DNA from: an uncultured Planctomycetales bacterium
Lineage (GTDB): Bacteria; Omnitrophota; Gorgyraeia; Zapsychrales; Aceulaceae
NCBI GenBank assembly: GCA_964648665.1
Contig: CAZYOA010000004.1
Location: 52,894-116,893 of the forward strand
DNA: 64,000 nt
Direction of reading: 5' to 3'
Shown here: piece by piece, positions 14,404-33,562 of the stretch
Layout: each line of letters begins with the position of its first letter
How positions within the stretch are numbered: position 1 is the first letter of the stretch
The notes under the pieces: generated by a model
The model's input: the letters and a program-made list of their open reading frames with translations, nothing else
The model's database searches: none
Told to the model about the DNA's origin: nothing
Program-made: the position numbers and the translations under genes

Positions 14404-14433
14404 AATTTTGTAGTTTTTTGAATAGAAATTCAC

Positions 14434-14906: not shown

Positions 14907-14930
14907 TTTCTAAAACTTTTATTCTTAAAG

Positions 14931-14972: not shown

Positions 14973-15016
14973 ATTTCTAATTTTGGTACTTGCAAGATAA
15001 GCAAACGGAGAAATTT

Positions 15017-17440
15017 TTGAATAAATACATTTGTCTTCATGGTCATTTTTATCAGCCTCCTCGAGAAAATCCTTGGCTAGAGGAAATCGAAAGCCAAGAT
15101 AGCGCTCTTCCTTTTCATGATTGGAACGAGCGTATTTCTTTTGAATGTTATTCCCGCAACTCTGCTTCACGTATTCTTAATAATAAAAAGAAGATTGTTG
15201 ATATTGTTAATAACTATTCCAAGATTAGTTTTAATTTTGGTCCTACGCTCTTGTCTTGGATGAAGAAAAAAGATCCTGAGACTTATCGAGATATTCTTTA
15301 CGCGGATCAACTAAGCCAACAAAATTTTTCTGGACACGGAAGTGCTATTGCACAAGTTTATAATCATATGATTATGCCGCTTGCTAATGAGCGTGATAAG
15401 CAGACACAAGTTATCTGGGGTATTCGAGATTTTGAGTATCATTTCAAGAGAAAGCCGGAAGGAATGTGGCTGGCAGAAACTGCTGTCGACATTAAAACTC
15501 TTGAAGTTTTAGCTGAGCATGATATTTCATTTACGATCTTAGCTCCTCATCAAGCAAAACGAGTAAAAAGAATACAGGATAAGAAGTGGATTGATCTTAA
15601 AGGTAGAGGCATTGATCCTAAAAAGGCCTACCTTTGTCGTCTACCTTCAGGAAAAAGTATAAATATTTTCTTTTATGACGGACCGATTGCTCAAGGCGTT
15701 GCTTTTGAAGGACTTTTAAAAAATGGAGAAGATTTTGCCCAGCGTCTTTTAGGTGCTTTTGATTCAAAGTCAGAAAAAGATCAGCTCGTTCATATTGCAA
15801 CGGATGGAGAAACGTATGGACATCATCATAAGTTTGCGGATATGGCGTTGGCATATTGTTTGCGATTAATTGAAAAAAAGAATTTAGCTAAGGTGACAAT
15901 TTATGGAGAATTTTTAGAGAAGTTTCCTCCGCGAGATGAAGTTGAGGTCTTAGAAAATACGTCGTGGAGTTGTGCTCATGGTATTGAGCGATGGCGGTCA
16001 GATTGCGGATGTTCAATGGGATCAAATCCAAAATGGAATCAAAAATGGCGACAAGGTTTAAGAGAATCGTTGGATTGGTTGCGCGATGAAGGAGTTAAAG
16101 TTTATGAACACCAGATGAGCGCATTTTCTAAAGATGTTTGGCACCTGCGAAATCAATACATCAATGTTGTTTTAAATCGAAATTCTAAGAATATTGAAGA
16201 ATTTTTAAAAGAAAATATTCAGAAGTCTTTATCTGACGAAGAAAAAATAAAAATATTAAAGTTGCTTGAGTTACAGCGTAATAGCATGTTTATGTATACG
16301 AGTTGTGGGTGGTTTTTTGATGAGGTATCAGGCATTGAGCCAACTCAGATCCTTAAATATGCGGCTCGCTCTATTCAGTTGATCGAAGAGATTTCTGGCA
16401 ATAAAGTTGAGGGTCAATTTTTAAGTCTTTTAGAGAAGATAAAAAGCAATATTCCAGAGGTTGGAAATGCAAAGAATATTTATACTAAGAATGTAAAGCC
16501 GTTTGTTGTTGATCTTTTTCGTGTCGGAGCACATTATGCTGTTTCGTCATTATTTGAGAAATATCCTAAAGAAACACAGATTTATTGTTATACAATTCGA
16601 ACAGAAAAATCTCATCAGCAAGAAGATGATCGTCTTAAATTATCGATTGGATATGGAACTGTTAGATCTGATATTACGCTTGAAGAAACTCCTATCTTTT
16701 TTGCAGGATTTCATCTTGGAAATCATAATATTATTCGAGGCGTTAGACAGCTTTTGCAGGGAGAGTTTGAGCAAGCTGAGAAAGAAATTTTAGATGCTTT
16801 TGCGGCTAAGAAAATTCCTGAAACTACGCGATTGATTGATAAGTATTATGGACCAGAAAATTATTCGCTAGAGCATTTGTTTAAAGAAGAACAACAAAAG
16901 ATATTAGATGAAGTCTTGAAAACAACTATGGATGAGATTGAGGGTTCTTTTAGAGAAATTTATGAAAAACATCATCCTTTGATGCAAGTTCAAAAAGAGC
17001 TTCAAGTTACGCTACCTAAAGCTCTTTCGACAATTGCCGAATTTGTTTTAAACCGAGATTTGTCTGAAGTTATCCAGGCTGATCCTATTGATTTGAAACG
17101 TTTACGAATGTTAGTCTGGGAGATTAAGAGATGGTCGTTTTCTAGAGACAAGCAGTTGATTTGTTTTATTGCAGGACGCAGAATTGATGGATTGATGAAG
17201 CAGCTAGTTCGCGATCCAGATGAAATTTCTTTTATTGAAATGTTAAGTTCGATTGTTGAAAGTTTAAATATTTTAAATTATAATTTAGATTTATGGAAAG
17301 CTCAAAATATGTACATTATTTTGAGTCGAAAATTATTAAAAGATAAAAAATCTCGAGCACAAAGAGCAGATGAACGGGCTAAATCTTGGGTTGAGGCTTT
17401 TGAGCTTTTAGGTAAATTTTTACAAGTTGAAATAGGATAA
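15017..17440 (+). CDS. glycoside hydrolase family 57 enzyme (alpha-amylase / 4-alpha-glucanotransferase type) with long C-terminal extension
   Basis: It carries the GH57 N-terminal signature CLHGHFYQPPRE and GETYGHHH. There is no in-frame ATG upstream of the signature. The TTG at 15017 is preceded by GGAG at -7, whereas the longest ORF would start at the TTG at 14990 with no RBS. Confidence 0.8.
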   Translation: MNKYICLHGHFYQPPRENPWLEEIESQDSALPFHDWNERISFECYSRNSASRILNNKKKIVDIVNNYSKISFNFGPTLLSWMKKKDPETYRDILYADQLSQQNFSGHGSAIAQVYNHMIMPLANERDKQTQVIWGIRDFEYHFKRKPEGMWLAETAVDIKTLEVLAEHDISFTILAPHQAKRVKRIQDKKWIDLKGRGIDPKKAYLCRLPSGKSINIFFYDGPIAQGVAFEGLLKNGEDFAQRLLGAFDSKSEKDQLVHIATDGETYGHHHKFADMALAYCLRLIEKKNLAKVTIYGEFLEKFPPRDEVEVLENTSWSCAHGIERWRSDCGCSMGSNPKWNQKWRQGLRESLDWLRDEGVKVYEHQMSAFSKDVWHLRNQYINVVLNRNSKNIEEFLKENIQKSLSDEEKIKILKLLELQRNSMFMYTSCGWFFDEVSGIEPTQILKYAARSIQLIEEISGNKVEGQFLSLLEKIKSNIPEVGNAKNIYTKNVKPFVVDLFRVGAHYAVSSLFEKYPKETQIYCYTIRTEKSHQQEDDRLKLSIGYGTVRSDITLEETPIFFAGFHLGNHNIIRGVRQLLQGEFEQAEKEILDAFAAKKIPETTRLIDKYYGPENYSLEHLFKEEQQKILDEVLKTTMDEIEGSFREIYEKHHPLMQVQKELQVTLPKALSTIAEFVLNRDLSEVIQADPIDLKRLRMLVWEIKRWSFSRDKQLICFIAGRRIDGLMKQLVRDPDEISFIEMLSSIVESLNILNYNLDLWKAQNMYIILSRKLLKDKKSRAQRADERAKSWVEAFELLGKFLQVEIG

Positions 17441-17441
17441 G

Positions 17442-18938
17442 ATGAAATTGAACAAAAGATCTAGTGGTATTTTGCTTCACATTACGTCGCTGCCGTCACT
17501 TTATGGGATAGGGGATCTTGGTTCAGGTGCGTATCAATTTGTTGATTTTCTTAAAGAAAGCAAACAAGCATATTGGCAAATTCTTCCTTTGAATCCAACA
17601 GACATTGCTCTTGCTAATTCTCCGTATAGTAGTTGTTCGGCTTTTGCTGGGAATGTTCTTTTGATTAGTCCTGAATTTCTTGTTCGAGATGGATTTCTTA
17701 AAAAAGAGGATATTCCTCTAAAGGATTTCTCAAGCGATTCAGTTGATTATTTTTCCGTTGCCATGCATAAGGTTGATGTTCTTTATAAAGCTTTTCAGAA
17801 TGTAAAGAAAGAAATTTCTTCTGATAAAAAGTTCTTAGATTTTTGTTCTAAGAATAAATCTTGGCTCGATGATTATGGGCTTTTTATTGCTCTTAAAGAA
17901 AAATTTGAAGGAGCGGGATGGTGTCAATGGCCTGATGATATCCGTCAAAGAGATCCTCGGGTGATTGAAAAGTATCGAGCGAAATTAAGTGAGTCGATTT
18001 TAAGAGAAACTTTTTTTCAATATCTTTTTTATTCTCAATGGAAAGAGTTAAAGAAATATTGTAATAAAAAAGAAATTCAAATCATCGGAGATGTTCCTAT
18101 TTATGTTCAACACGATAGCGCTGATGTTTGGGCAAATAAGAAATTCTTTAAGCTTGATAAAAATGGAGAATGTAAATTTTTAGCGGGAGTTCCGCCAGAT
18201 TACTTTAGTGAGACAGGGCAGCTCTGGGGAAATCCTGTATATTGTTGGGATGCCTTAAAATTAGATGGATATGATTGGTGGAAAAAACGATTAAAACATA
18301 ATTTTGAATGTTTTGATTTGGTGCGCATTGATCACTTCAGAGGCTTTGTTGCCTTTTGGGAAGTTCCCAAAGGAGAAAAGACGGCAATTAAGGGAGCGTG
18401 GTCTAAGGTTAATGTATATGACTTTTTTGATGAATTATTAGATTATTTTGAAGATTTTCCAATTATTGCTGAAGATTTAGGTGTGATTACCGATGATGTT
18501 AAGCAAGTTATCAAGAGATATCGTTTTCCGGGAATGAAAATCTTGCAATTTGCTTTTGATGGGAAACAAGATAACCCATATTTGCCTAAAAATCATATAA
18601 AGAATTGTATTGCTTATACAGGAACGCACGATAACAATACAACTAAAGGTTGGTTTCGCCAGGAAGCCAATAATGAAATAAAACAACAGATTTGTGATCT
18701 TGGTGGTCAAAAGGTTGCAGAAGAAAATATTTCTGAAATTTTTATGAATTTAGCTATGAATTCAGTTGCTAATACTGTTATTTTTCCTCTTCAAGATGTC
18801 TTGAATTTAGATGAATCTGCTCGAATGAATCAACCTTCGACTATAAAAGCTAACTGGCAGTGGCGTTTCACTTTTTCAACTATTACTCCTCTTTTAAAGA
18901 AAAAACTCTCCAGTTCTTGTTCTGCCTGTCATCGATAA
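17442..18938 (+). CDS. malQ: 4-alpha-glucanotransferase (amylomaltase, GH77)
   Basis: MKLNKRSSGILLHITSLPS...GIGDLG is the typical MalQ N-terminus. It starts 1 nt after the GH57 stop. Confidence 0.9.
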   Translation: MKLNKRSSGILLHITSLPSLYGIGDLGSGAYQFVDFLKESKQAYWQILPLNPTDIALANSPYSSCSAFAGNVLLISPEFLVRDGFLKKEDIPLKDFSSDSVDYFSVAMHKVDVLYKAFQNVKKEISSDKKFLDFCSKNKSWLDDYGLFIALKEKFEGAGWCQWPDDIRQRDPRVIEKYRAKLSESILRETFFQYLFYSQWKELKKYCNKKEIQIIGDVPIYVQHDSADVWANKKFFKLDKNGECKFLAGVPPDYFSETGQLWGNPVYCWDALKLDGYDWWKKRLKHNFECFDLVRIDHFRGFVAFWEVPKGEKTAIKGAWSKVNVYDFFDELLDYFEDFPIIAEDLGVITDDVKQVIKRYRFPGMKILQFAFDGKQDNPYLPKNHIKNCIAYTGTHDNNTTKGWFRQEANNEIKQQICDLGGQKVAEENISEIFMNLAMNSVANTVIFPLQDVLNLDESARMNQPSTIKANWQWRFTFSTITPLLKKKLSSSCSACHR

Positions 18939-19034: not shown

Positions 19035-19409
19035 ATGTATAAAATTCTTTTTGTTGAAGATGACGTCGATTTTTTAGCGGTTATGCAAAAACGATTAACC
19101 GAACAAGGATATCAAGTTCTTGCTGTTTCTGATTGTTTTAGTGCTACTCAGCTTGCTCATAGCGAGAAGCTGGATGTTATTATTTTAGATTTAAAAATTC
19201 CAGGTGGTGGAGGAGTTAATACGCTTAAGAATTTGAAAATTTCTGTTCATACAAGCGGCATTCCGGTTATTATTTCAACAGCGTCAGATGATCCAGAAGA
19301 AAAAAAGGTTGTTTTAGCTCAAAATCCATCGGCTTATTTAGAAAAACCATACGATTCTGAACTTTTAATAAAAACCATTGAAGAGATAATGTCAAATAAG
19401 CATGAGTAA
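19035..19409 (+). CDS. stand-alone response regulator receiver (CheY-like)
   Basis: It has the full REC residue set: DD (FVEDDVD), D (IILDLKIP), S/T (ISTAS) and K (LEKPY). It overlaps the next gene by 8 nt. Confidence 0.85.
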   Translation: MYKILFVEDDVDFLAVMQKRLTEQGYQVLAVSDCFSATQLAHSEKLDVIILDLKIPGGGGVNTLKNLKISVHTSGIPVIISTASDDPEEKKVVLAQNPSAYLEKPYDSELLIKTIEEIMSNKHE

Positions 19410-21555
19410 GCTTTTAGATGCCTTAACTGAGAGAAATTTAGTTACTTACGAGCAAATTAAAGATGCTCGAATTAAGCAAGTAGGGGCTAAAAAATCGATT
19501 TCTGAGCTTTTAGTAGACATGGATTTTGTTCAGGAAGAAGATTTAGCTCGCGTTGCTTCTGATGTTTTTGGCCTTCCTGTTTGTAATCTTTCCCAAGAAG
19601 AAATTGATCCTGAAGCTATAAAAAAACTTCCTTTTGAAAAAGTTAAACGTTATGGCGTTTTTCCTTTTCGCATTGAAGATGGTCAGCTTTTGCTTGCCAT
19701 GTGTGATCCTCAAGATTTTGTTGCTTTAGAAGATATTAGTGCTATTTGCGGAATGGGCACAAGACCTGTTTTAGCAAAAAAGAGTGATATTGAAAGTCAT
19801 ATTGAAAAACATTATCTTTTGGATGATTTGACGTATGATTTGATTAAGAATATGACCGAAGATATTAAGATTGAAGTTGTTCAAAAAGATTCAGAAAAAG
19901 AAATATTTCAGGATGAATACTTTATTGGGCAAAAGTCTCCTATTGTCAGACTTTGTAATTTAATTGTTTCGGATGCGGTTAAGGCGAGAGCTAGCGATAT
20001 TCACATTGAGCCATACGAAAAAATTGTAGAGGTGCGCTATCGCGTTGATGGATATTTAAAAAATATTATGAAAATTCCTAAAAGGTTGCATCCTCCTTTG
20101 GCAGTGCGTATCAAGATTTTAACGGACCTTGATATTGCAGAAACACGAAAACCTCAAGACGGAAGAAGTAGTATTCTAATTGAAGGACGCAAGGTTGATT
20201 TACGCGTTTCTACAATTCCAACGTTTCATGGGGAAAAGATTGTTATTCGTCTTCTTGATCAAAAAAAATCGAGGGTTGAATTAGATAGTATTGGCTTTGA
20301 ATCTCAAAATTTAGAAATATTTAAAGAAGCTATTAATAGGCCTCAGGGCATTATTTTGATTACTGGCCCGACGGGAAGTGGTAAAACTTCGACATTGTAT
20401 GCAGCTCTTAATAATATTAAGAATGAAACAAAGAACATTGTTACGATTGAAGATCCTGTTGAGTATTTGATTCAAGGCGTTAATCAAATTCAAGTTAATC
20501 CTGTCAAAAATGTTACTTTTTCAACCGGATTAAAAAGTATTCTGCGTCAAGATCCAAATGTTATTTTGGTTGGAGAAATTCGTGACAAGGAAACAGCAGA
20601 TATTGCTTTTCGCGCATCTTTAACAGGGCATTTGGTTTTTTCTACTTTGCATACAAATAATGCGCTTTCAACAGTTGTTCGTCTTTACGATATTGGTCTT
20701 GAGCCGTATTTGGTTGGATCTTCTGTCATTTTAATTGTTGCACAGAGATTAGTTCGTTTGATTTGTAAGAATTGTAAGAAAGAGTATGAGCCTGGTGAAA
20801 AAGAAAACGAACGATTCGGGGCTTTTATCAAAAGACATGATATTAAGAAATTGTATCGCGCAGAAGGATGTGAGCATTGTAACTATATGGGTTTTTCTGG
20901 GCAAACTGCTATTTTTGAAATTATGCAGATTGATGCAAAAGTTAAGAATTTAATATCTCAAAAAGCTTCACAGGCTGATCTTTGGGAAGTTGTAAGGCAA
21001 AACGGTCTTCAAACTTTAGCTGAGGCAGGTGTTCAGAAAATTATTGATGGATTGACAACAATTGAAGAAATTGAACGTGTTTGTCAGCTTTCATCTGAGC
21101 AAACTTTAACAGAAGCGAGCAATCAAAAGAAAGCTTCTAAAGTTCCAGGTAGTATTTCAAGGGAACTTCATAAGCAAGTAAATAAAAAATTTCGTATTCT
21201 TATTGTTGATGACGAACCAGATATTCGAGAAGTGTTAAAAATGCGTCTCACTGTCGAGGGATATACTGTTTTAGAGGCAGAGGATGGTTCGGAAGGTGTC
21301 AAGCGGACATGTCAAGAAAAGCCAGATTTGGTTATTATGGATATTATGATGCCTGTTATGAATGGCATTGAGGCAACAAAGAAAATACGTGATAATCTTG
21401 AGATTGCAGCAACACCTGTTGTTATGTTGACGGCAAAAGCGACTAAAGAAGATGAGCTTCAGGGACTTGATGCTGGAGCTGACGATTATCTGAGTAAGCC
21501 TTTTGATGAAGATAAGCTTTTAGCAAGAATTCGAATGCTTCTTCGAAGAAGATAA
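19402..21555 (+). CDS. GspE/PilB-type secretion/assembly ATPase with N-terminal MshEN-like domain and C-terminal receiver (REC) domain
   Basis: The N-terminus has two tandem about 24-aa motifs resembling the c-di-GMP-binding MshEN motif (KLLDALTERNLVTYEQIKDARIKQ and SISELLVDMDFVQEEDLARVASDV). Walker A GPTGSGKTS, Asp box VTIEDPVEY, Walker B ILVGEIRD and His box HLVFSTLHTN are present. A tetracysteine motif (CKNC...CEHC) is also present. The C-terminal 120 aa form a complete REC (ILIVDDEPD, MDIMMP, LTAK, SKPF). Confidence 0.85.
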   Translation: MSKLLDALTERNLVTYEQIKDARIKQVGAKKSISELLVDMDFVQEEDLARVASDVFGLPVCNLSQEEIDPEAIKKLPFEKVKRYGVFPFRIEDGQLLLAMCDPQDFVALEDISAICGMGTRPVLAKKSDIESHIEKHYLLDDLTYDLIKNMTEDIKIEVVQKDSEKEIFQDEYFIGQKSPIVRLCNLIVSDAVKARASDIHIEPYEKIVEVRYRVDGYLKNIMKIPKRLHPPLAVRIKILTDLDIAETRKPQDGRSSILIEGRKVDLRVSTIPTFHGEKIVIRLLDQKKSRVELDSIGFESQNLEIFKEAINRPQGIILITGPTGSGKTSTLYAALNNIKNETKNIVTIEDPVEYLIQGVNQIQVNPVKNVTFSTGLKSILRQDPNVILVGEIRDKETADIAFRASLTGHLVFSTLHTNNALSTVVRLYDIGLEPYLVGSSVILIVAQRLVRLICKNCKKEYEPGEKENERFGAFIKRHDIKKLYRAEGCEHCNYMGFSGQTAIFEIMQIDAKVKNLISQKASQADLWEVVRQNGLQTLAEAGVQKIIDGLTTIEEIERVCQLSSEQTLTEASNQKKASKVPGSISRELHKQVNKKFRILIVDDEPDIREVLKMRLTVEGYTVLEAEDGSEGVKRTCQEKPDLVIMDIMMPVMNGIEATKKIRDNLEIAATPVVMLTAKATKEDELQGLDAGADDYLSKPFDEDKLLARIRMLLRRR

Positions 21556-21583
21556 ATTAAAAAAGAAAAGTAAAATAATTTTT

Positions 21584-23110
21584 ATGGCTTTTCCGCCAGA
21601 ATTAAGAATAAAATTTAAAGACCTCATTGCCCATCGAAGTGGTCTCTATTTTCGAGATCATGATTTAAGAAATTTAGAAAGCGCTATTGAGCAGAGAATT
21701 AAAGTAAAAAAATTTGATTCTTTCGCAACGTATTATTCCCATCTTATTGTATCTGATAAAAAAGATGATGAATTTCGTGAGCTTTTAAATCTATTAACAA
21801 TCAATCATACCTATTTCTTTAGAAATAAGCCTCATTTTATTACTCTTCGAGAAAAAGTTTTACCTGCAATCATAGAGAGAAAAAGACGAGAACATTTAAG
21901 GAATTCAGATCAACGTCTGCAGCTTCGTATTTGGAGCGCTGGATGCTCATCTGGAGAAGAGCCGTATTCGATTGCGATGACTATTGCTGATCTTATCGAC
22001 GATTTGGAGAATTGGGATATTAACGTGCTTGCAACGGATGCTTCTCAAACTGTTTTGGCAAAAGCACAAAAAGGTATTTATCAAGCCAGTTCTATGCGTC
22101 ATGTTGATGATGTGCGTTGTCAGAAATACTTTACTCAGAAGACGAATAATAAGGGTAAATGTGAATATGAAATTTCAAGCGATATTAAGAAAATGGTATC
22201 GTTTGGATTTTTTAATTTGATGGATGAAGATTACCCTATGGGATTTGATATTATTTTTTGCCGCAATGTTGTTATTTATTTTGAGCTTAAAACAACAATT
22301 GAAGTTATGAGTAAGTTTTACAATAGCCTTGTTGACGATGGATGCATGTTTATTGGTTATTCAGAGACGTTGCAGTTTATTAAAAATAAGTTTCAGATGG
22401 CAACATGGAAAGATGCGATTTATTATTTTAAGAATATTGACTCACAAAACATACCTTTGCAAGGTGAACAAGTAGGGGAAGAAAAAAAACCAGTTGATAT
22501 TGATAAGGTTTTAGGAGAAATTGCGCGCGCGGAAGCTTTGGCCAAGATGGAAAGTCAGCCAATAGCTGGAGAGGCACCTAAAAAGCTTGAAGATATTATT
22601 GTTGCGGTCACGAAACATCTTCATCTTAAAGAGTATGATCAGGGTCTTGATTTAATTACGCAAGGGAAAGCAATCGACGAGAAGTCAACGGATTTGTTTT
22701 ATTTGCAAGCAGAAATATTGATGAATCAGGGTAAAAGTGACGAGGCAAAAAATAGTTTAGAGGAAGCTCTAAAGCTAAACTCTCTTTTTATTCCTGCACA
22801 TTATTTAAATGGATGTATTTGTTTTGAAGAAGACCGATTTGAAGATGCTCAAGAAAGTCTTCGCAAAGCGCTTTTTCTAGATAATGATTTTTTGATCGCC
22901 CATTTCTATTTAGCTCAAGTGTTTAAGCAAGAAGATAAAGCTGATGATGCTATTCGTCAATACAGAAACACTTTAAAGTTGTTGTCATCAAAATCTTCAG
23001 ACACTATAATAGCCTACAGCGGCGGATTTAATGCGGCAACATTAATGAGTGTTTGTCGTGATAATTTGGAACGCCTAAAGTTTGGAATATTTACGGAGAA
23101 GGAAGAATAA
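21584..23110 (+). CDS. cheR: CheR-type chemotaxis methyltransferase with C-terminal TPR repeats
   Basis: CheR motifs are present (NHTYFFRN, IWSAGCSSGEEPYSIAM, FCRNVVIYF). The C-terminal about 150 aa are TPR-like. Confidence 0.85.
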   Translation: MAFPPELRIKFKDLIAHRSGLYFRDHDLRNLESAIEQRIKVKKFDSFATYYSHLIVSDKKDDEFRELLNLLTINHTYFFRNKPHFITLREKVLPAIIERKRREHLRNSDQRLQLRIWSAGCSSGEEPYSIAMTIADLIDDLENWDINVLATDASQTVLAKAQKGIYQASSMRHVDDVRCQKYFTQKTNNKGKCEYEISSDIKKMVSFGFFNLMDEDYPMGFDIIFCRNVVIYFELKTTIEVMSKFYNSLVDDGCMFIGYSETLQFIKNKFQMATWKDAIYYFKNIDSQNIPLQGEQVGEEKKPVDIDKVLGEIARAEALAKMESQPIAGEAPKKLEDIIVAVTKHLHLKEYDQGLDLITQGKAIDEKSTDLFYLQAEILMNQGKSDEAKNSLEEALKLNSLFIPAHYLNGCICFEEDRFEDAQESLRKALFLDNDFLIAHFYLAQVFKQEDKADDAIRQYRNTLKLLSSKSSDTIIAYSGGFNAATLMSVCRDNLERLKFGIFTEKEE

Positions 23111-23113
23111 GAA

Positions 23114-23596
23114 ATGAAAGCCATTGTTTTTGTTTTAGAAGAAAAATCGTATGCAATAAACATTTCTCAGATTTCAGAAGTTATCCGGATGAGAGAGATG
23201 ACGCCGATTCCAGATAGTGCGGATTTTGTTGAAGGCATTATTAGTCTCCATGGAAAAGTTATTCCAATTATAAATTTAAGAAAAAAGATTGGAATTGTGG
23301 CTCAACAAGGCACCACGCAGTGTCGCGTTATTGTTGTAAAAGTCAATAATCAGTTGATCGGAATTATTGTTGATAGCGTTTCTGATGTTGTTGCGTTTGA
23401 AGATGAATCCGTTGTTCCTCCCGACGATGTTTTAAAAGAAACTGTGTATTTAACAGGAGTTGTTAAGTCTGAATCAAAGATTATTTTGATTCTTGATATT
23501 GAAAAACTTTTAAGTGAAGATGCTCAGAGAAGCGCTGAAAAGATTCATAAGCATGTTGAGGTAAAAAGAAAGGCAAGCGTTGATGGAAAGCGATGA
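23114..23596 (+). CDS. cheW: CheW coupling protein
   Basis: A 160 aa CheW-like domain (YAINISQISEVIRM...GIINLRGKVIPIINLRKK). Confidence 0.8.
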   Translation: MKAIVFVLEEKSYAINISQISEVIRMREMTPIPDSADFVEGIISLHGKVIPIINLRKKIGIVAQQGTTQCRVIVVKVNNQLIGIIVDSVSDVVAFEDESVVPPDDVLKETVYLTGVVKSESKIILILDIEKLLSEDAQRSAEKIHKHVEVKRKASVDGKR

Positions 23597-24104
23597 AAAG
23601 ATTATCATTGAAGTTGATGATCAAGATTTATTAAATCAAGACGATAAAAAGCACACTATCCGAGTCTTAACATTTTGTCTTGGTGGCGAGAATTACTGTA
23701 TTGATATTAATCACGCCAAAGAAGTTGTCCGTTTGCCAGAAATAACAAAAGTGCCCAATGCCCCCGCCTTTATTGTGGGGATTATAAATTTAAGAGGTGA
23801 GGTCTTATCTGTTTTAGATATTCATTATTTCTTTGGATTAGAGAAAAAAGGAAAACCGCAGGATGCGCGTTTGATTGTTACAGATGTTGTTGGTGAATCT
23901 TTAGGAATCATGGTTGATAGAATCAAGGATGCGATTGATATTGATCAGCTATCAATTCAGCCGCCGCTGGCGACGCTAAAAGGGAACTTGTCAGCATATA
24001 CAAAAGGTCAGATACAGCTCGGCGATGAGATTTATATTCTTTTGGATATTTATAATATTTTAAATTGTGATGAAATAAAAAATTTGCGAAAAGGAAATAT
24101 TTAA
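23580..24104 (+). CDS. cheW: CheW coupling protein (second copy)
   Basis: A CheW-like domain (YCIDINHAKEVVRLPEITKVPNAPAFIVGIINLRGEVLSVLDI). It overlaps the first cheW. Confidence 0.8.
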   Translation: MMESDEKIIIEVDDQDLLNQDDKKHTIRVLTFCLGGENYCIDINHAKEVVRLPEITKVPNAPAFIVGIINLRGEVLSVLDIHYFFGLEKKGKPQDARLIVTDVVGESLGIMVDRIKDAIDIDQLSIQPPLATLKGNLSAYTKGQIQLGDEIYILLDIYNILNCDEIKNLRKGNI

Positions 24105-24138
24105 ATTTTAATATTTATTTAAAAAGGGGAGTAAAAAA

Positions 24139-25563
24139 ATGAAGAAAAAAGTTTTAATTGGGTTTATTTTTATTTTATTAATGGTACTGGTTCTTGGAAT
24201 TGTTTCACTTGTTAGCATTAATCATATTAATGAAAGCTGGGATGATGCCCAAAAAGAAGGTTCGGCTTTGGTAGATTTTAGTCAAGATTTTGCTCTTGCT
24301 TTTCAGCATTGTCGAACAGATGAAAAAGATTTTATTTTGCGACATGAGGCAAAAGGTTTTAAATTTTCTAAAGATAAGTACATCGAGGATCGATTTAAAA
24401 GCAGAGATGTTAAGGAAGCTAGAAAAGCTTTGCAAGAACTTAAAAATATTAAAGTAATAATAGAAGAGGAGTATCTTGAAAGGCTAAAAATTGAAAAGCT
24501 AGAAGAGTTATTTAATATTTATGTTTCGCAAGTATTAGCCATGGTTGATGGTTTAGAGAAATCTTTAGAAAATGAGCACGAAGATGGATCATTAGGAAAT
24601 AAAGATTCTAATTTTGCTCAAACTGCTGCATTAATAAAGCCTATCGTTAAAGAGATTTTAGAAGTAGGGCATGAAGATTACAAGCATCATGTTGCCGAAG
24701 CTCATGCTATTGAGGATTCTGCTACCTCTACAATCTACATATCGCTGTTTGTTGTTATGTTGCTGGGGGCGTTTGTTGTATTTTATATCCTTGGTGTTAT
24801 TAGCAGAGCTATTAAAACATTGACAGGTGTTGTTCAGCGAGTTACTTCTGCTTCAACCGAGATTTTAGCTGCTAGTCAGCAACAAACATCAGGAGCGCGA
24901 GAACAATCTTCGGCAGTTGCAGAGACGACATCCTCGGCTAAAGAGCTTTCAGCCACTTCTGAACAGGTTGGGGACAGTATTCGTCGCGTTTCTGAAGCGG
25001 CAGGTCATGCGTTAGCTGGTATGGCAAAGATTAAAGACTCTATTGGAAAGACAAGTGAAATGATTGCTTCTTTAGGAGAGAAGTCTCAGAAAATTGGAAA
25101 AATTACATCTCTTATTGATGATGTGGCAGATCAGACAAATTTGCTAGCAGTTAATGCTTCTATTGAGGCGGCTCGTGCTGGAGAGCAAGGGCGCGGATTT
25201 ACAGTTGTTGCTGATGAAATTCGAAAGTTATCAGATTCAACAGCAAAATCGACAACAGACATTACGTCTTTGATTGAAATTATTCAGCATGAAATGACAA
25301 ATTCCATTATGTCTATGGAGGGAAGTTTGCGTAGCGTTGATGATGAAGCAAAGCTTGCTCAGCAAACAGCAGAGCGGTCTAAGGAAATTGCAATGAGTGC
25401 AAATCAGCAAATTAGCGGATCAAAACAAATTTCTGAGGCCATGGGCAATATTGATGAGGCGATGAAGCAAATTGTTGCTGGTGCGCAACAAACACAGCAA
25501 GCGGTTAAAGATCTTTCTGCTTTGGGAGAAGAGCTTAATAAATTATCCAAAGAGCTTGAATAA
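24139..25563 (+). CDS. methyl-accepting chemotaxis protein
   Basis: It has an N-terminal TM, a roughly 170 aa sensor region and a second TM. An MCP signalling domain follows, including the highly conserved segment [33 protein letters not shown]. Confidence 0.85.
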
Positions 25564-25582
25564 ATATAAACAAGGAATTTAA

Positions 25583-27697
25583 GTGGCATTTGATAAAGCA
25601 AAATATTTAGAAGGCTTTAAAGCGGAAGTTAAAGAGCTTTTGCAAGATTTGAGTTTGGGGCTTTTAAAGCTGGAGAAAAAGCCGACAAACAAAAAGCTTC
25701 TTGAAAGCCTTATGCGTAAAGCACATACTATCAAGGGATCAGCGACGATGATGGGATATAAACGTATTGCAGACATATCTCACAACATGGAGGATGGGCT
25801 TGATCGTGCCTTACAAGGAGAGTTAAGTTTAAAGAAGAATCATTTTGATATATTGCTTAAATGTTTAGATGCGATTGATCCTCTTTTGGAGGATAAAGTA
25901 ACATGGCAGGACAAAGGCATTGATGCTTCTTTTGTTGAGAATATTTGTGCTGAGGCGAAGAGCGCTTTTTGTGAAGATGAAATTTCTGAAGAATCTAAAA
26001 AGAAAGAGTCAAAAGAAGAGCTTGCTAAGAAAGAAGAAATTGCTGAAGAAGATTGGAAAGAGGCGAAGACGGAAGATAGTATTCGAATTAATGTTAGCCA
26101 GTTAAATAAACTTGTTAATCTTTCTGGAGAAATGCTTGTTAGTAAAATCCGTTTAAAAGAGCTTGTTTCAGGGCTACAACAGAAAGTGTCAGAAGTTCCT
26201 GATATTGGAGAATCTTTTATTGAAATTAGCAAAGGATTGACTTCCCTCGGAGACACAATGGATTTCTTGACTTCTAATATGCAAGAAGAGGTTATGAAAT
26301 CTCGAATGATTCCAATATCGTATTTATTTAATACTTTTCCGAGAGCAATGCGTGATTTAGCGCGACAAAAAGGAAAAAATATTCAGCTTGAAATTAATGG
26401 ACAAAATACGTATTTGGATAAAACGATTGTTGATCAGGTTAAGGATCCTATCATGCATTTGTTGCGTAATGCCGTCGATCATGGTGTTGAGACGATAGAG
26501 AAAAGACAGGAAAAAGGAAAGCCAGAAGAAAGCAAGATTGCACTTTCAGCTTATCAAGAAGGATCTTTGGTTGTTATTGAAGTTTCTGACGATGGAAATG
26601 GTATCGATGTTGAAAAAGTAAAACAGCATGCTGTTAGCAAAGGGCTTGTTTCCGAAAGTCGTATTAATGATATGATCGATGACCAAGTGTATCAGTTGCT
26701 TTTTTCTCCAGGTTTTAGCACGGCAGAGGAAGTAACAGAAACGTCTGGGCGTGGCGTAGGATTAGACGTTGTTCGTGAAAATATTGTTCAGCTTAAAGGC
26801 ATGATTGAGGTTCAATCAGATCCAGGGAAAGGAACAAGGTTTATTATTAAGCTTCCTTTAACGCTTGCCATCACCGAAAGTCTTTTGGTTGCTGCGGGTA
26901 GCGATATGTTTGCAATTCCCATTGAATCTGTTGTTGAAACAATTCGAATTAAAACTGATGAGATTAAAACGATTGAAGCAAGAGATGTTGTTGTTGTTCG
27001 AGGGCATATTTTGCCTTTGGTTCGTATTTCAGATATTTTTGGTATTTCTCGAAAAGGAATTTTTGAAAAGAATTTTTCGCCTGTTGTTATTGTTCAATCT
27101 GTTGAAAAAAGAATTGCCATTTTAATTGATGATTTGATAGGCCGACAAGAAATTATTACAAAAGCGATTGGCGATCCTTTAAAGAATGTTCGCGATATCG
27201 CAGGAGCCACAATTTTAGGAAATGGAAAAGTTATTCTTATTTTAGATGTTCCATCGATTATTGATTCTGCTGAAGGGGTTATTGTTAAAAGACCAATTGC
27301 TGTGTTAAAGCCAGCTATTCAAGGGAAAAAGAAAAAGACAATTCTTTTAGCCGAGGATGTCTTGAGCACAGCGATGCTTGAAAAAAATATTCTAGAATCT
27401 TCAGGCTTTTCTGTTGTGATTGCACGTGATGGAAAAGAAGCTTTGGACCGCGCCGCTCAAGAAACGTTTGATCTTGTTATTTCTGATGTTTTGATGCCGC
27501 GAATGGATGGATTTGAACTTGCAACAAACTTAAGAAAAAGCAAGACACATAAGGGTGTTCCTATTATCATGGTAACAACGAGAGAAAAAGATGAAGATAA
27601 GCGCCGAGGTTTAGAGGCTGGGGCGAATGCCTATATTTTAAAGAAAGATTTTACATCAGAGATTTTATTAGAAACGATTGAACGATTGGTTGGATAG
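25583..27697 (+). CDS. cheA: CheA histidine kinase fused to C-terminal receiver (CheA-REC hybrid), GTG start
   Basis: It contains an Hpt domain (HTIKGSATMMGY), a dimerisation domain, a HATPase domain (HLLRNAVDHG...GRGVGLDVV) and a CheW-like domain. The C-terminal REC has the full residue set: D (LISDVLMP), T (MVTT) and K (LKKDF). Confidence 0.9.
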   Translation: MAFDKAKYLEGFKAEVKELLQDLSLGLLKLEKKPTNKKLLESLMRKAHTIKGSATMMGYKRIADISHNMEDGLDRALQGELSLKKNHFDILLKCLDAIDPLLEDKVTWQDKGIDASFVENICAEAKSAFCEDEISEESKKKESKEELAKKEEIAEEDWKEAKTEDSIRINVSQLNKLVNLSGEMLVSKIRLKELVSGLQQKVSEVPDIGESFIEISKGLTSLGDTMDFLTSNMQEEVMKSRMIPISYLFNTFPRAMRDLARQKGKNIQLEINGQNTYLDKTIVDQVKDPIMHLLRNAVDHGVETIEKRQEKGKPEESKIALSAYQEGSLVVIEVSDDGNGIDVEKVKQHAVSKGLVSESRINDMIDDQVYQLLFSPGFSTAEEVTETSGRGVGLDVVRENIVQLKGMIEVQSDPGKGTRFIIKLPLTLAITESLLVAAGSDMFAIPIESVVETIRIKTDEIKTIEARDVVVVRGHILPLVRISDIFGISRKGIFEKNFSPVVIVQSVEKRIAILIDDLIGRQEIITKAIGDPLKNVRDIAGATILGNGKVILILDVPSIIDSAEGVIVKRPIAVLKPAIQGKKKKTILLAEDVLSTAMLEKNILESSGFSVVIARDGKEALDRAAQETFDLVISDVLMPRMDGFELATNLRKSKTHKGVPIIMVTTREKDEDKRRGLEAGANAYILKKDFTSEILLETIERLVG

Positions 27698-27714
27698 CTG
27701 ATAAAGGAGTTTGC

Positions 27715-28089
27715 ATGGAAAAGAAAGTTTTAATCATAGAAGATTCAAAGACGGATGCGAATATTTTAGTAGATTTATTGCGAGAAGAAGGGTTGATTGC
27801 GGAAGTTGCCTCGACAGGGAAAAGAGGTCTTGAGCTTGCACAGGAAATGGTTCCAGATCTTGTTCTTCTTGATTTGATGCTTCCTGATATGTCTGGACTG
27901 GATATTTGTTCTGAGATTAAGAGTGATAATCGGCTCAAAAATACTATGGTTGTCGTTGTTAGCAGTCAAGATGATATTAAGGTTATTACGGAGGCTTTTC
28001 ATCGGCATGCCGATGATTATATTTTGAAACCACCTGTGCCAGAATTTTTAATTAAGAAAATAAAACTATATATTGGAAATCGAAATTAA
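27715..28089 (+). CDS. cheY: CheY-like response regulator
   Basis: It has a complete REC (LIIEDSKTD, LLDLMLP, VVSS, LKPP). Confidence 0.8.
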   Translation: MEKKVLIIEDSKTDANILVDLLREEGLIAEVASTGKRGLELAQEMVPDLVLLDLMLPDMSGLDICSEIKSDNRLKNTMVVVVSSQDDIKVITEAFHRHADDYILKPPVPEFLIKKIKLYIGNRN

Positions 28090-28094
28090 TAAAA

Positions 28095-29126
28095 ATGGAT
28101 AATAAAATACGAGTTTTGATTGTTGATGATTCTGCTTTAATGCGAAAAGCATTAGAGGAAATTTTGACATCAGATGAAAATATTGAAGTTGTTGGTTTTG
28201 CAAAAGACGGACAAGAGGCATGTGAAAAAGTACGTGTCTTAAAGCCAAACGTTATTACAATTGATATTAACATGCCGGTTATGAATGGTCTTGATGCGAT
28301 ACAGGCGATTATGTCTGATGTTCCTACGCCTATCATTGTTGTTAGCAGTATGGATGCGAGAATTGTTGCGAAAGCACTCGTTATTGGAGCTATGGATTTT
28401 GTTGTTGTTTCAGATGAAATTGACGAAGTTTCTAAGAGCTTGATTGAAAAAGTTAAGATTTCATCAAATGTGCGACCGTTAAAGCGGATACCTCCTAAAA
28501 TCTTTGAACTAAAAGAAAAAAAGGAAAAAGATTTTAAAAAAGAGTTTTCTAGTGAGAAAGATCTAGATTTTGTTGTTTCAATCGGAGCTTCAACGGGAGG
28601 GCCTCAGGCTCTTCAGGTTGTTCTTTCTTCTTTGCCCGAAAGTTTCAATGCTGGCATATTGATCGTTCAGCATATGTCTGATGGTTTTATTGGAGGCTTG
28701 GCAGATTGGCTTTCGTCTGTAACGCCACACAAAGTTGAACTTGCACGGACAGGTGATATTTTGAAGAATGGAAAAATCTTTTTAGCACCGGATCGATACC
28801 ATTTATGCATTGATGATCATGGCGTTATTCAGTTAAAAAAAGGATCTTTAAGTAAGTCAGGATTTGTTCCTTCTATAGATGAGACGATGGCTTCTGTTGG
28901 CGAAAGTTTTGGCTCGCGTTCAATTGGAGTTATCATGACAGGCATGGGAAGAGACGGGTCAGTTGGGATAGAAACGCTTAAGCGATGCAAAGGAAAAACA
29001 ATTGCTCAAGATGAGGAAACATCTGTTATTTTTGGTATGAATAAAGAAGCCATTGATAAGGGGTGTATTGATTGCATCGTTTCATTGGATAAAATTAGCG
29101 AAACAATCTATAATATAATATCTTAA
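28095..29126 (+). CDS. cheB: protein-glutamate methylesterase CheB (REC + methylesterase)
   Basis: An N-terminal REC (VLIVDDSALMR, TIDINMP) is followed by a CheB catalytic domain (GASTGGPQAL, HMSDGF). Confidence 0.9.
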   Translation: MDNKIRVLIVDDSALMRKALEEILTSDENIEVVGFAKDGQEACEKVRVLKPNVITIDINMPVMNGLDAIQAIMSDVPTPIIVVSSMDARIVAKALVIGAMDFVVVSDEIDEVSKSLIEKVKISSNVRPLKRIPPKIFELKEKKEKDFKKEFSSEKDLDFVVSIGASTGGPQALQVVLSSLPESFNAGILIVQHMSDGFIGGLADWLSSVTPHKVELARTGDILKNGKIFLAPDRYHLCIDDHGVIQLKKGSLSKSGFVPSIDETMASVGESFGSRSIGVIMTGMGRDGSVGIETLKRCKGKTIAQDEETSVIFGMNKEAIDKGCIDCIVSLDKISETIYNIIS

Positions 29127-29144
29127 AAACTTAAGGATAGATTT

Positions 29145-29504
29145 ATGAATAAAAAAGTTTTAATCATCGATGACAGTGCTTTTGTTTTAAATATGCTTAA
29201 AGATATGCTAGAAGAGAAATGTTTTTCTTGCTTGACAGCTGAAGATGGCGAAAAAGGAGTTGCAGTTGCAATTAGCGATAAACCAGATATCGTTATATGC
29301 GATACGCTTTTACCTGGAATAGATGGGTTTGAAGCATGTCGGCAAATAAGAGAGCAGTTAAATTCTGAAACAACAAAAATTATTGTTATGACAGGAACAG
29401 CTGATGCTATTGATGCTGTTAAAGCGCGAGAAGTTGGTGCGGATGATTATTGTGCCAAAACAAGCGATTTTAGTGTTTTAATAAAAGCGATAGAGAAAAT
29501 ATAA
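29145..29504 (+). CDS. stand-alone response regulator receiver
   Basis: It has a complete REC (LIIDDSAF, VICDTLLP, MTGT, AKT). Confidence 0.8.
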   Translation: MNKKVLIIDDSAFVLNMLKDMLEEKCFSCLTAEDGEKGVAVAISDKPDIVICDTLLPGIDGFEACRQIREQLNSETTKIIVMTGTADAIDAVKAREVGADDYCAKTSDFSVLIKAIEKI

Positions 29505-32500
29505 ATGAGCTTTAAAAAGCAATGCCTTAAAACAAAATCGTGTGCAATCTTCTTGATGATCGCGTTTTTAATTATAATTACAGGAAGTATTGTCGTTCCT
29601 AAAATGGCTCAGTATGGTAAAGAAGAAATTGCTCAAGAAGCACAAGCGATTCTTTTTGCTTTAACCAATAGTGTTAATCGTGAAATTGATGAAGTTCATC
29701 GAGTTGCCGTTGCTTTGTCTGGAGATGCTTCATTGAAGAATGCTTTGCAGTCATCTGAATTTGAAGTTTTAATGACAGCAAATAGTGTTCTTGATCGTTA
29801 TGCAGATGCTCTAACAGATACGGTTTGCTATGTTCTTAATACAGAAGGCTTTACAGTTGCATCTTCAAATCATGAAAACATTGATAGTTTTGTGGGAAAA
29901 GACTACAGTTTCCGTCCTTATTTTCAAATGGCAAAGCAAGATGGATATGGTGAATATTTCGCTTATGGTGTAACTTCAAGAAAAAGAGGATTTTATGCAT
30001 CGGCTGTCATTAGAAATGAGTTTAATAGCGTCATAGGAGTCGTTGTTATGAAGCGAGATGTTGATGTTCTTGCTAAGGATTTTTTAGAGTTCCATCCTTG
30101 CTTTTTGATTGATCCTAATGGCATTATTTTTCTTTCAAGCAACCCAAGTTTAGTTTTAAGGTCTTTATGGCCATTAACAGCTGAGCAAGAGAAAGATCTT
30201 ATTGAGAGCAAGCAGTTTGGTGTAGGACCTTTTCAATCTATTCTTTTAGAAAAGATTCAAGTTGACGAAAAAGTTGAATTAGAAAAGAAATCTTTTCTTG
30301 CTTTTCGCCATCCTATTAAAACTAAAGGTTGGTCTTCTCTAATCTTGATGCCATCAAAACGAATAACTTTTTATAAATTCTTCGGAATTATAGTTTTCTT
30401 ATTCCTTATTGTTTTAGTAACCGTGGCTTTTATTATTGTATCTATTGCAAATAGCTCTGCTGAGAAATCGAGAGGGTTTGTAGCTATTGTTGAGTCTTCA
30501 TCAGATGCCATTGTTGGAAAGACGGTTGAAGGAAATATTATAAGCTGGAATAAAGGCGCTGAAAGAATGTATGGGTATTCAGCTAAAGAAATTATAGGAA
30601 AGTCAATTGCAATTTTAGCTAAAGATGATCAAAAACAAGAAATTGTAAATATTTTAAAAAGAATTAAGTTGGGTGAGAGGATTGAAAACTTTGAAACAGA
30701 GCGGATTACTAAAGATGGACGCAAGATTGTCGTATCTTTAAACATTTCGCCTATTCGAGACTCTAAGGGCAATGTTGGGGAGGTGGCAACAATTGCGCGT
30801 GATGTTACTCAAGAGAAAAAAGCTCAAGAAGTTTTAAAAGAAACACAGGAAGCTTTAAAAGAAAAAGCCTGGGGTTTAGAAAAAACAAATGATGCGATTA
30901 AAGCACTTTATTCGGATCTTTCGGATAAGACTCAGAAGCTGGAGGAATCACGAGAAGAGATTGCTGCAGCCAAAGATTCCGCTGAACGAGTTTTTGATCT
31001 TAGCCCGAGTGCAATTTTTACAGTCAATAAAGACAAGATTATTACAAAATGGAATAAAAAAGCAGAAGATACAACAGGATATTCTTCTGAAGAAATTATA
31101 GGTAAAGATTGTTCTATTTTTGCGGATTACCCGTGTAAAGAAATTTGTGGACTTTTTTCTGATCAGATCGAAAAACCAGTTTCGTCTAGAGAATGCCGCA
31201 TTCGAAGAAAAGATGGAGAGTTTAGAACTATTGCAAAGAATGCGGATCTGCTTTACGATTTACATGGAAATGTTTCTGGAGGCATAGAAAGTTTCGAAGA
31301 TATTACAGATCGCAAGAAAGCTCAAGAAAGTCTAGCTGAGAGTGAAGAAAAATATCGTCATTTAGTTCAGAATGCAAATAGTATTATCTTGCGAATCAAT
31401 GATCAAGGAGAAATTACATTTTTCAATGAGTATGCGGAGGAATTTTTCGGATTTACTCAAGAAGAAATTGTTGGAAAACATGTTATTGGAACTGTTTTAC
31501 CTGAGCAGGACGGGGTGGGTCACGATTTAAATGAAGTGGTTTCACGTATCTTGCAAGATCCTAAGAAATATGCGAATAATGAGAATGAAAATATTTGTAA
31601 AGATGGTCGACGAGTTTGGGTTCGATGGTCAAATAAAGTTGTTTTAGATTCAAGAAAAGATGGAGGAAGCGAAATTTTATGCGTGGGAACAGATATCACA
31701 GAGATTAAAGAATTTCAAAATGAACTTATAAAGCTTTCTCGTGCAGTTGAGCAAAGTCCGAGTGTCGTTGTTATTACAGATTTAGAGGGTAATATTGAAT
31801 ATGTAAATCCAAAATTCTGCGAGTTAACGGGATATTCTTTTGAAGAAGCGGCTGGCCAGAATCCTCGAATTTTAAAATCTGGTGACAAGCCTGAAGAATT
31901 TTATAAGGATATGTGGGATACGATTCAATCTGGAAAAGAATGGCGGGGAGAATTTTGCAACAAAAAGAAAAATGGTGAAGAGTATTGGGAGCTTGCTTTG
32001 ATATCGTCAATACGAAATGATCAAGGAGAAGCAACGCATTTCTTGGCTGTTAAAGAAGATGTTACGGCGCGTAAAGCTGCTGAAGATAAAGCTAGAGATG
32101 CTATTCGGCTTAAGAGTGAATTTATTTCTGTTGTTTCTCATGAATTGCGTACTCCTCTGACGGCAATTAAAGAAGGTATTTCTATTGTTGCTGATGGTGT
32201 GACTGGCGAGGTTAATCCTGATCAAGCAGAATTTTTATCTGTTGCGAAGAGAAATGTTGAAAGATTGTCTCGGTTAATTAATGATGTTTTAGATTTCCAG
32301 AAACTCGATGCTCAGCAGATGACATTTGATTTTGAATTACAAAATATTAATTTGTTAGTTCAAGAAGTTGGCAAAACAATGGAGAAGATTGCGCAAAAAG
32401 ATGGATGTGAATTAAAAACAGAATTAGATGAGACCATCCCAGAAATTAATATGGATCATGATCGTGTTACTCAAGTTGTAACAAATTTAGTTAATAATGC

Positions 32501-32813
32501 GATTAAATATGCGGCGGGTAAGCCGATAACGATTAAAACATCACATCAAGGCAATACTATCCAAGTTTCTGTTATTGATCAAGGTGAAGGCATTAAAGAA
32601 GATGATTTTGAGAAGCTTTTTCAAACATTTAGCCAATTGAAAAAAGGTAAAGAAAGAAAAACAGGAAGCACGGGACTTGGTCTTGCGATTTCAAAGAAAA
32701 TTGTCGAAAGCCATGGTGGAAAGATTTGGGTTGAGTCTGAATATGGAAAGGGAAGTTCTTTTTCTTTTCTTATTCCTGTTGAAGAGAGAAGAAAGAGTGA
32801 AAGCGAGACATAA
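29505..32813 (+). CDS. sensor histidine kinase: periplasmic Cache-like domain, TM, four PAS/PAC modules, HisKA + HATPase
   Basis: At 1102 aa it has a Cache-like segment (residues about 40-290) flanked by TM helices. Repeated PAS signatures are present. The H-box is [11 protein letters not shown] and the ATPase has N/G1/G2 boxes ([25 protein letters not shown]). It has no receiver domain. Confidence 0.85.
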
Positions 32814-32824: not shown

Positions 32825-33193
32825 ATGGCAAAGAAAATTTTAGTTGTTGATGATGAGCCGGATATATTAAAAGTTGTTATTTTTCGTCTTCAAAAAGAGG
32901 GGTACGAGGTCAAAACAGCTATTGATGGGCAGATGGCGATAGATATGCTCTCTGAAGAAAGGCCTGATATGGTTCTTTTAGATATTACGCTTCCGCTTCT
33001 TAATGGATTTGAAGTGTGCAAGAGAATAAAATCAGATGAAAATCTTAAAGATATTCCGGTTATGTTTTTAACAGCATCAACAGCGTCTGAAGGATTTAAA
33101 GAAAGAGCTGAGAGTGTTGGCTCCCAAGGCTACATGTTTAAACCATTTGATTATGAGTTATTATTAGAAAAAGTAAAAAAATTAATAAATTAG
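32825..33193 (+). CDS. stand-alone response regulator receiver
   Basis: It has a complete REC (LVVDDEPD, LLDITLP, LTAS, FKPF). Confidence 0.8.
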   Translation: MAKKILVVDDEPDILKVVIFRLQKEGYEVKTAIDGQMAIDMLSEERPDMVLLDITLPLLNGFEVCKRIKSDENLKDIPVMFLTASTASEGFKERAESVGSQGYMFKPFDYELLLEKVKKLIN

Positions 33194-33202
33194 GAGAATA
33201 AG

Positions 33203-33562
33203 ATGGAAAAGAAAATTTTAGTTGTTGAGGATGAGCTAGATATTCAAAAAATTTTAAAAGCTAATTTAGAAGCAGCTGGGTATGTAACGTTTGTTGCAGA
33301 TAATGCTAAGCAAGGACTAGAGCTTATTAAAAAAGAGCAGCCGGTAGCGGTTATTCTTGATGTCATGCTTCCAGATGAAAACGGTTTTGATGTTTGTCGA
33401 AAAATTAAGAATGACAATGATGAAATAAAGGTATTAATTTACACCGGAAAGCTTGAAGCTGTTGATGCTAGACGAGCTAGAGAAGCAGGGGCAGACGATT
33501 TTACGGTTAAAACAGTTGATTTTAAATATATCTTAGAATCGATTGAGAAATTAACTTCATAA
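33203..33562 (+). CDS. stand-alone response regulator receiver
   Basis: It has a REC fold with an ED acidic pair (VVEDELD), then ILDVMLP, YTGK and VKT. Confidence 0.8.
   Translation: MEKKILVVEDELDIQKILKANLEAAGYVTFVADNAKQGLELIKKEQPVAVILDVMLPDENGFDVCRKIKNDNDEIKVLIYTGKLEAVDARRAREAGADDFTVKTVDFKYILESIEKLTS

Follow-up and report, generated by a model that had tools for sequence, protein, structure and literature searches.

The stretch analysed here, a window of 64,000 nucleotides from contig CAZYOA010000004.1 whose numbering is used throughout, encodes a member of the PilB/GspE assembly ATPases that ends in a response-regulator receiver domain (REC), a protein which we call PilB-REC (Table 1). The reading that we favour, and hold to be reasonably probable though far from certain, is that this ATPase, which assembles a type IV filament, doubles as the response regulator in a two-component system, phosphorylation standing in for the input of c-di-GMP (cyclic dimeric guanosine monophosphate). 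The loss of the motif for c-di-GMP binding throughout the clade together with the gain of a receiver suggests that one regulatory input has given way to another, phosphorylation appearing to have replaced c-di-GMP control and not to have been added to it, and a sensor kinase probably switches the motor directly.

The open reading frame (ORF) lies on the + strand with the coordinates of the initial annotation and codes for 717 amino acids plus stop. The three modules that had been assigned to it are borne out by Pfam (PF05157 at residues 56-139, 78 bits, E 5.1e-22; T2SSE, PF00437, at residues 178-559, 448.7 bits, E 1.6e-134; Response_reg, PF00072, at residues 599-711, 115.9 bits, E 1.3e-33) and by an AlphaFold2 (AF2) model of the full-length protein, built on an alignment of 79 homologues (predicted local distance difference test, pLDDT, 85.2; predicted template modelling score, pTM, 0.79). 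The model comprises a four-helix N-terminal subdomain (helices 2-10, 16-29, 33-39 and 45-56), an alpha/beta subdomain reaching to about residue 140, the N2 domain and ATPase core, a disordered stretch at 565-594 (pLDDT <50) and a well-folded receiver. Conservation, expressed as the fraction of the majority residue, is 0.72 in both the receiver and the ATPase core and only 0.16 in the tether between them (residues 563-596), with 0.66 in the four-helix subdomain versus 0.59 in the alpha/beta one. All of the best 120 homologues (50-76% identity), the majority of them from Omnitrophota and some under the label Elusimicrobia or Firestonebacteria, carry PF05157, PF00437 and PF00072, the closest being that of Ca. 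Aceula lacicola (76% identity); judged by this shared domain content, the fusion of an MshEN-fold domain, T2SSE and REC is a stable family. Some homologues (P0044, P0070, P0079; L005 10001-12250), the Firestonebacteria one included, begin with a zinc-ribbon-like extension of about 45 residues (CxxC...CxxC) before the MshEN-fold domain.

The catalytic core holds every ATPase box that had been claimed for it, specifically Walker A (GPTGSGKT, 322-329), the Asp box (EDPVE, 350-354), Walker B (ILVGEIRD, 388-395) and the His box (GHLVFSTLHT, 409-418), the key residues of which are invariant in the 79 aligned homologues. The same invariance is found in the four cysteines of the zinc site, also recognised before, which are C455 and C458 (CxxC 455-458) and C490 and C493 (CxxC 490-493). 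At the other end of the protein the receiver is indeed canonical, with an acidic pair (D603, D604), the phospho-acceptor D647, T677 and K699 all present and invariant in these homologues. Its best matches among the NCBIfam models are PhoB, RpaB and MtrA (129 bits) versus 88 bits for haloarchaeal CheY and, on these scores, it is PhoB/OmpR-like rather than CheY-like. The predicted phosphorylation input to the motor is therefore, as far as conserved residues can tell, well supported.

A different picture was obtained for the N-domain. The MshEN motif, defined by Wang et al. (2016; PMC5013675) and extended in later work (PMC11731258), reads (R/K/L)LGxx(L/V/I)(L/V/I)xxG(L/V/I)(L/V/I)xxxxLxxxLxxQ and comes in two copies with five residues between them; the backbone of the glycine at position 3 touches the Hoogsteen edge of the guanine, the glutamine holds the ribose-phosphate and the leucines form two base-stacking triads, L25/L29/L39 and L10/L54/L58. 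The N-domain of PilB-REC does have the MshEN fold, as seen in its phmmer match in the PDB to MshE (5HTL, E 2.4e-8 over residues 3-132), in the four helices of the model and in PF05157, with PilF reaching E 1e-32. When reference N-domain sequences, taken from PDB alignments, were aligned with the query and the 120 homologues (MshE numbering), residues 3-26 and 32-55 fell opposite MshE 9-32 and 38-61 with no gap and are thus homologous motif positions. To this extent the two motif stretches of the initial annotation stand, but they do not fit the motif, since the query agrees with 12 of the 22 consensus positions (the hydrophobic scaffold ones), with five of the 12 ligand contacts and with none of the four signature glycines. 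The two checks that had been suggested, alignment to MshEN domains and structure modelling, gave, in the alignment, contact positions that are mostly lost from the query and widely replaced in the 120 homologues and, in the model, the expected four-helix bundle and alpha/beta subdomain.

The substitutions are G11L, G18N, L29R, R38S, G40S, G47D, L58A and Q61V. The motifs start with K-L-L (I) and S-I-S (II) and not with (R/K/L)LG, so that both guanine-contacting glycines are replaced (G11L, G40S); the turn glycines G18 and G47 have become N12 and D41; the triads read I19/R23/I33 and L4/L48/A52, both broken by L29R and L58A; and of the motif-end glutamines Q26 (MshE Q32) is kept while the second position is V55 (Q61). 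By the same scoring the c-di-GMP binders MshE and Thermus PilF GSPII-B have 12/12 contacts and 4/4 glycines, Geobacter PilB, which carries the motif, has 12/12 and 3/4, and Myxococcus PilB, which binds, has 11/12 and 3/4. The query, known from sequence alone, falls with its 5/12 and 0/4 below even PilF GSPII-A (6/12 and 3/4), its best PDB match, which has one near-perfect motif and yet does not bind c-di-GMP (PMC11731258). In Xanthomonas XpsE the loss of binding was attributed by Wang et al. (PMC5013675) to G11V, L29R, R38G, G40L, L58C and Q61V, among others, and the query shows two of these very changes, L29R and Q61V. Both non-binders, XpsE (2D27) and PilF GSPII-A (9G1W), show a degenerate motif on a preserved fold, as does PilB-REC, whose motif II (SISELLVDMDFV...) closely resembles that of PilF GSPII-A (SLAEVLVDMGLL...). 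They differ from it in being without a receiver, whereas the query clade has a signature of its own in the four-helix subdomain, DA(K/R)xKQxGAKKP(I/L)(Q/H)ELLVEMGF.

The degeneration is common to the whole family. Among the 120 homologues G11 is retained in none, L29 in three, R38 in none, G40 in one, L58 in eight and Q61 in one, and the replacements are largely uniform (L29 to K/R in 101, R38 to P in 110, G40 to Q/H in 106, L58 to A/S in 96). The turn glycines are kept in 100 (G47) and 39 (G18) of them, and the equivalent of Q32 in 100. Of the cluster representatives at 50% identity (10,565 at E up to 0.001) that an exhaustive N-domain search returned, the best 150 were inspected, and these include seven further clusters with a complete ATPase and a C-terminal REC; all six of the scorable representatives reach at most 6/12 contacts and share the motif II start P-(L/I)-Q. 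REC-less relatives in the same set include 13 of 26 scorable ones with at least 9/12 and the canonical RLG...Q/RLG...Q. The replacement of the c-di-GMP contact residues is, to judge from these alignments, clade-wide, and the N-domain, having lost the residues needed for binding, most likely does not bind c-di-GMP. The PF05157 match, known by the name MshEN, was discarded as evidence of c-di-GMP binding because it covers residues 56-139 only, that is, the C-terminal subdomain outside the motif region, and we would caution that this Pfam name does not imply binding in other proteins either.

The initial annotation had proposed that the same polypeptide senses c-di-GMP and a phosphorelay. A motor with two inputs, in which a relaxed MshEN motif binds c-di-GMP while the C-terminal receiver is phosphorylated, could draw on the homology of the N-domain to MshEN along its whole length and on its modelled fold, on the lysine at motif position 1 that the extended consensus allows (PMC11731258), on the retained Q26, L4 and L48, on the remark by Wang et al. 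that imperfect motifs can still bind (PMC5013675) and on a gene for a PilZ protein within the window. We nevertheless consider it very improbable: changes similar to those in the contacts, glycines, triads and Q61 abolish binding in XpsE (PMC5013675), a protein that fits the motif better does not bind (PilF GSPII-A, PMC11731258), the degeneracy is fixed in 120 close homologues and six further representatives, and no GGDEF, EAL or HD-GYP genes are found in the 64-kb window. What is present is an N-domain that has lost most of the contact residues, and loss of the motif residues is a case in which the initial annotation itself would have given up c-di-GMP sensing. As to the PilZ gene, it is real (6507-6899, PF07238, 51.7 bits) and the protein has the RxxxR motif (RQFPR), but the second motif is NVGTGG and not (D/N)xSxxG, with Ser changed to Gly, and the gene lies 12.5 kb from PilB-REC in an unrelated cluster with RNase Y, YmdB and GltX. 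With a separate operon and an altered second motif, and no specific link to the motor, it was rejected as support for c-di-GMP signalling through PilB-REC.

The strong conservation of the four-helix subdomain and its own clade signature imply that it has some selected, specific function, and the N1 domain probably serves either in generic docking or in a clade-specific interaction. This strongly conserved signature, invariant in the clade, makes up a basic loop that lies between the second and third helices, and a more specific idea, to which we attach little probability, is that the former c-di-GMP pocket was repurposed, this loop binding another ligand or a phosphorylated receiver, be it the fused one or the one co-translated from the gene upstream. 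If a phospho-receiver were bound in this way, the pilus motor would have its N1 domain clamped by an intramolecular phospho-switch, and regulation of this kind has to our knowledge been described for no PilB or GspE ATPase.

The genomic context points to a two-component partner. PilB-REC belongs to a tight operon (19035-34175, intergenic gaps of -17 to +34 nucleotides) with the order REC, PilB-REC, CheR-TPR, CheW, CheW, methyl-accepting chemotaxis protein (MCP), CheA-CheW-REC, CheY-like REC, CheB, REC, dCache/4xPAS HisKA kinase, REC, REC and a peptidoglycan-binding protein. The stop of the upstream REC gene overlaps the start of PilB-REC by 8 nucleotides, and these two genes are therefore likely to be translationally coupled. 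We compared nine homologous loci (seven from Omnitrophota, one from Firestonebacteria and one labelled Elusimicrobia). A HisKA sensor kinase adjoins the PilB-REC homologue in all nine, eight have a single-domain REC as its direct upstream neighbour and seven have additional single RECs after the kinase, while che genes occur in none of the nine. Four of these loci (L001, L006, L007 and L003) preserve the flanking gene order of the window on both sides and pass directly from PilB-REC to the kinase. Since these syntenic loci are without it, the che block, of about 7.9 kb, is taken as lineage-specific, and it seems to have been inserted recently into a two-component operon, between PilB-REC and its kinase.

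One could argue instead that the receiver is a chemosensory output, with CheA (25583-27697) phosphorylating Asp647 and the motor being a fused CheY-like effector of a type IV pilus (Tfp)-type Che system that steers pilus motility. The genes for a complete set of partners, CheR-TPR, two CheW, MCP, CheA-REC, CheY-like REC and CheB, do follow in the same tight operon, and Che-like systems act on PilB through receivers in Synechocystis (PMC11181946) and Pseudomonas (PMC11656802). Against this, the block is missing from all nine homologue loci, even from relatives with 74-76% identity and otherwise identical synteny, which means that it cannot have been the ancestral partner; the scores of the receiver are far higher against PhoB/OmpR than against CheY, and the operon already holds dedicated single-domain receivers for CheA. 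We therefore find it decidedly unlikely that CheA explains the fusion, with CheA still a possible second phosphodonor for PilB-REC.

In the two-component reading that we prefer, the dCache-PAS HisKA kinase would phosphorylate Asp647, and the small single-domain receivers may act as phosphate sinks or competitors, or as relay elements. Phosphorylation could then alter the assembly of the hexamer, its ATPase activity or the docking of the motor to the membrane platform, as might be expected by analogy with NtrC-type AAA+ rings and with the action of PixG~P and DrdR (see below). In this genome only, the inserted chemosensory module may feed in a second signal via CheA. In NtrC-type enhancer-binding proteins a receiver is likewise fused to a ring-forming P-loop ATPase, and phosphorylation controls ring assembly or activity. 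They belong, however, to another branch of the ATPase superfamily, have the receiver at the N-terminus and a transcriptional output, so that the analogy is a mechanistic one only.

Several observations weigh against this reading. The pairing of kinase and receiver is inferred from gene adjacency only, and CheA is, in this window, encoded equally close to PilB-REC. Q26, L4 and L48 are retained, and the four-helix subdomain is well conserved, pointing to some specific role. The protein also falls below the cut-offs of both NCBIfam equivalogs, PilB (TIGR02538, 604.1 vs 675.65) and GspE (TIGR02533, 581.0 vs 630.25), which thus assign it to neither subfamily, and pilus or type II secretion system (T2SS) structural genes (pilC, pilMNOPQ, pilin, gsp) are found neither in the 64-kb window nor within 10 kb of the nine homologue loci.

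These last points bear on the nature of the motor. An ATPase that drives a T2SS or another type IV filament in place of a type IVa pilus, with the receiver gating secretion, would account for a GspE score nearly equal to that for PilB and for the want of pilus genes nearby; moreover, the best Foldseek match is GspE-GspL (4PHT), and identity to EpsE is 46%, no different from that to Geobacter PilB. Specifically, the full model matches Geobacter PilB (5TSH/5TSG) with a template modelling (TM) score of about 0.9, and EpsE/GspE superposes equally well, the ATPase core dominating these matches, which accordingly do not discriminate PilB from GspE and say nothing about the N-domain. On the other hand, the N-domain is nearest to those of PilF and PilB (E 1e-33 to 1e-15), that of XpsE being far more distant (4e-7), many family members carry the PilB label at JGI, and gsp genes are just as absent from the neighbourhood. 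Taken together, a T2SS or another non-pilus filament seems unlikely to be what the ATPase drives, though with some weight in its favour.

Among the architectures collected by Wang et al. (2016, Suppl. Table 4; PMC5013675) are REC-MshEN-T2SSE (e.g., Geobacter metallireducens Gmet_3473), GAF-MshEN-T2SSE and MshEN-T2SSE-cNMPbind, and the order MshEN-T2SSE-REC is absent from that table. The first unites in one polypeptide the same three domain types as PilB-REC, but its receiver is N-terminal, before MshEN, whereas that of the query is C-terminal, behind the ATPase and on a disordered tether; MshEN-T2SSE-cNMPbind is a listed architecture with a C-terminal sensor, a place taken by REC in our protein. 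Vibrio cholerae MshE and the c-di-GMP-binding PilBs (Myxococcus PilB, Clostridium PilB2, Thermus PilF GSPII-B and GSPII-C) share with the query the N1 fold, the motif positions, the ATPase core and the tetracysteine site, and differ in that they have 11-12 of the 12 contacts and no receiver. The closest functional parallels are separate receiver proteins. In Synechocystis PixG~P binds PilB1 (PMC11181946), in Xanthomonas DrdR stimulates the ATPase of PilB and PilT (PMC13507683), and Pseudomonas has the PilG and PilH receivers (PMC11656802). All are phosphorylatable receivers acting on a pilus extension motor, as we would expect, from sequence, for PilB-REC, although there the receiver is covalently fused. 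PixG and PilG/PilH are driven by CheA-type kinases, unlike the query, which is conserved beside a HisKA kinase.

Known pilus extension motors are regulated by c-di-GMP at N1 or by separate adaptors (PilZ/FimX, PixG, DrdR, PilG). No description of a PilB-receiver fusion or of the MshEN-T2SSE-REC order was found in the literature searched, and neither a 2024 review of PilB regulation nor the paper naming Ca. Aceula mentions one, while public databases contain PilB-REC proteins in abundance, under generic names. A motor that carries its own receiver throughout a large conserved clade would count as a natural "Rosetta-stone" fusion and would support a direct action of receivers on PilB, and PilB-REC would offer a simple in vitro system, with one kinase and one substrate, for the effect of phosphorylation on the PilB hexamer. 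In Omnitrophota it suggests that the control of a surface filament is gated by the environment. One apparent fusion outside this phylum (L010, Desulfamplus) turned out to be a REC-SpoIIE gene beside a separate partial PilB-like gene. A scan of a genome collection with the protein returned no Omnitrophota locus and is uninformative on taxonomic spread, the back-translated pattern used (MDIMMPVM) having drawn generic receivers.

Table 1. Features of PilB-REC and its operon, with the evidence for each.
Feature	Coordinates	Strand	Evidence
PilB/GspE-family assembly ATPase with C-terminal receiver	19402..21555	+	Pfam, NCBIfam, homologues, AF2 model
Residues 1-56, MshEN_N-type four-helix subdomain with two degenerate 24-residue motifs (3-26, 32-55)	19402..19569	+	Model helices, gap-free alignment to MshE 9-61, motif score
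Residues 57-140, alpha/beta C-terminal subdomain of N1 (classical T2SSE_N)	19570..19821	+	PF05157; PDB matches to PilF, PilB, MshE and XpsE N-domains
Residues 178-559, N2 and catalytic ATPase domain	19933..21078	+	PF00437, motif boxes, tetracysteine Zn site, Foldseek
Residues 565-594, disordered hypervariable tether from ATPase to receiver	21094..21183	+	pLDDT <50; low conservation
Residues 597-717, PhoB/OmpR-like receiver, predicted phospho-acceptor D647	21190..21552	+	PF00072, invariant residues, NCBIfam
Single-domain receiver, 124 residues	19035..19409	+	Response_reg, 72.5 bits
Chemosensory block: CheR-TPR, CheW, CheW, MCP, CheA-CheW-REC, CheY-like REC, CheB, REC	21584..29504	+	Pfam
dCache/4xPAS/HisKA/HATPase_c sensor histidine kinase, 1102 residues, proposed cognate kinase	29505..32813	+	Pfam
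Two single-domain receivers (32825-33193, 33203-33562)	32825..33562	+	Pfam; all five canonical receiver positions present

The PilB-REC/kinase module is flanked by glycogen genes on one side (branching enzyme, GH57 and GH77; 12478-18938) and by trehalose genes on the other (HAD, trehalose phosphatase and GH65; 34304-38276), an arrangement shared by the relatives L001, L006 and L007, which are Aceula-like. The ORF for GH57 (14990-17440) has a TTG start and codes for 816 residues; as the orthologues in L001, L006, L007 and L003 have 807-809 residues, translation probably begins a few codons further downstream. Further along, at 41652-43394, an orphan single-domain receiver on the minus strand adjoins a GAF-GAF-ANTAR regulator just upstream of a type III glutamine synthetase and a glutamate synthase (GOGAT), and this pair, which recurs in L003 as receiver and GAF-ANTAR, looks like a nitrogen-regulation module. 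Three ORFs are without a Pfam match (167-1045, 292 residues; 8341-10041, 566 residues; 61946-63541, 531 residues), and a 566-residue gene, also without a match, occupies in L001 the position equivalent to 8341-10041. Over the whole window (1-64000) the guanine-cytosine (GC) content is 33-40%, almost every gene is on the + strand and the GC skew is strongly positive in all 2-kb bins (0.12-0.34), as would fit a long co-oriented segment of the leading strand.

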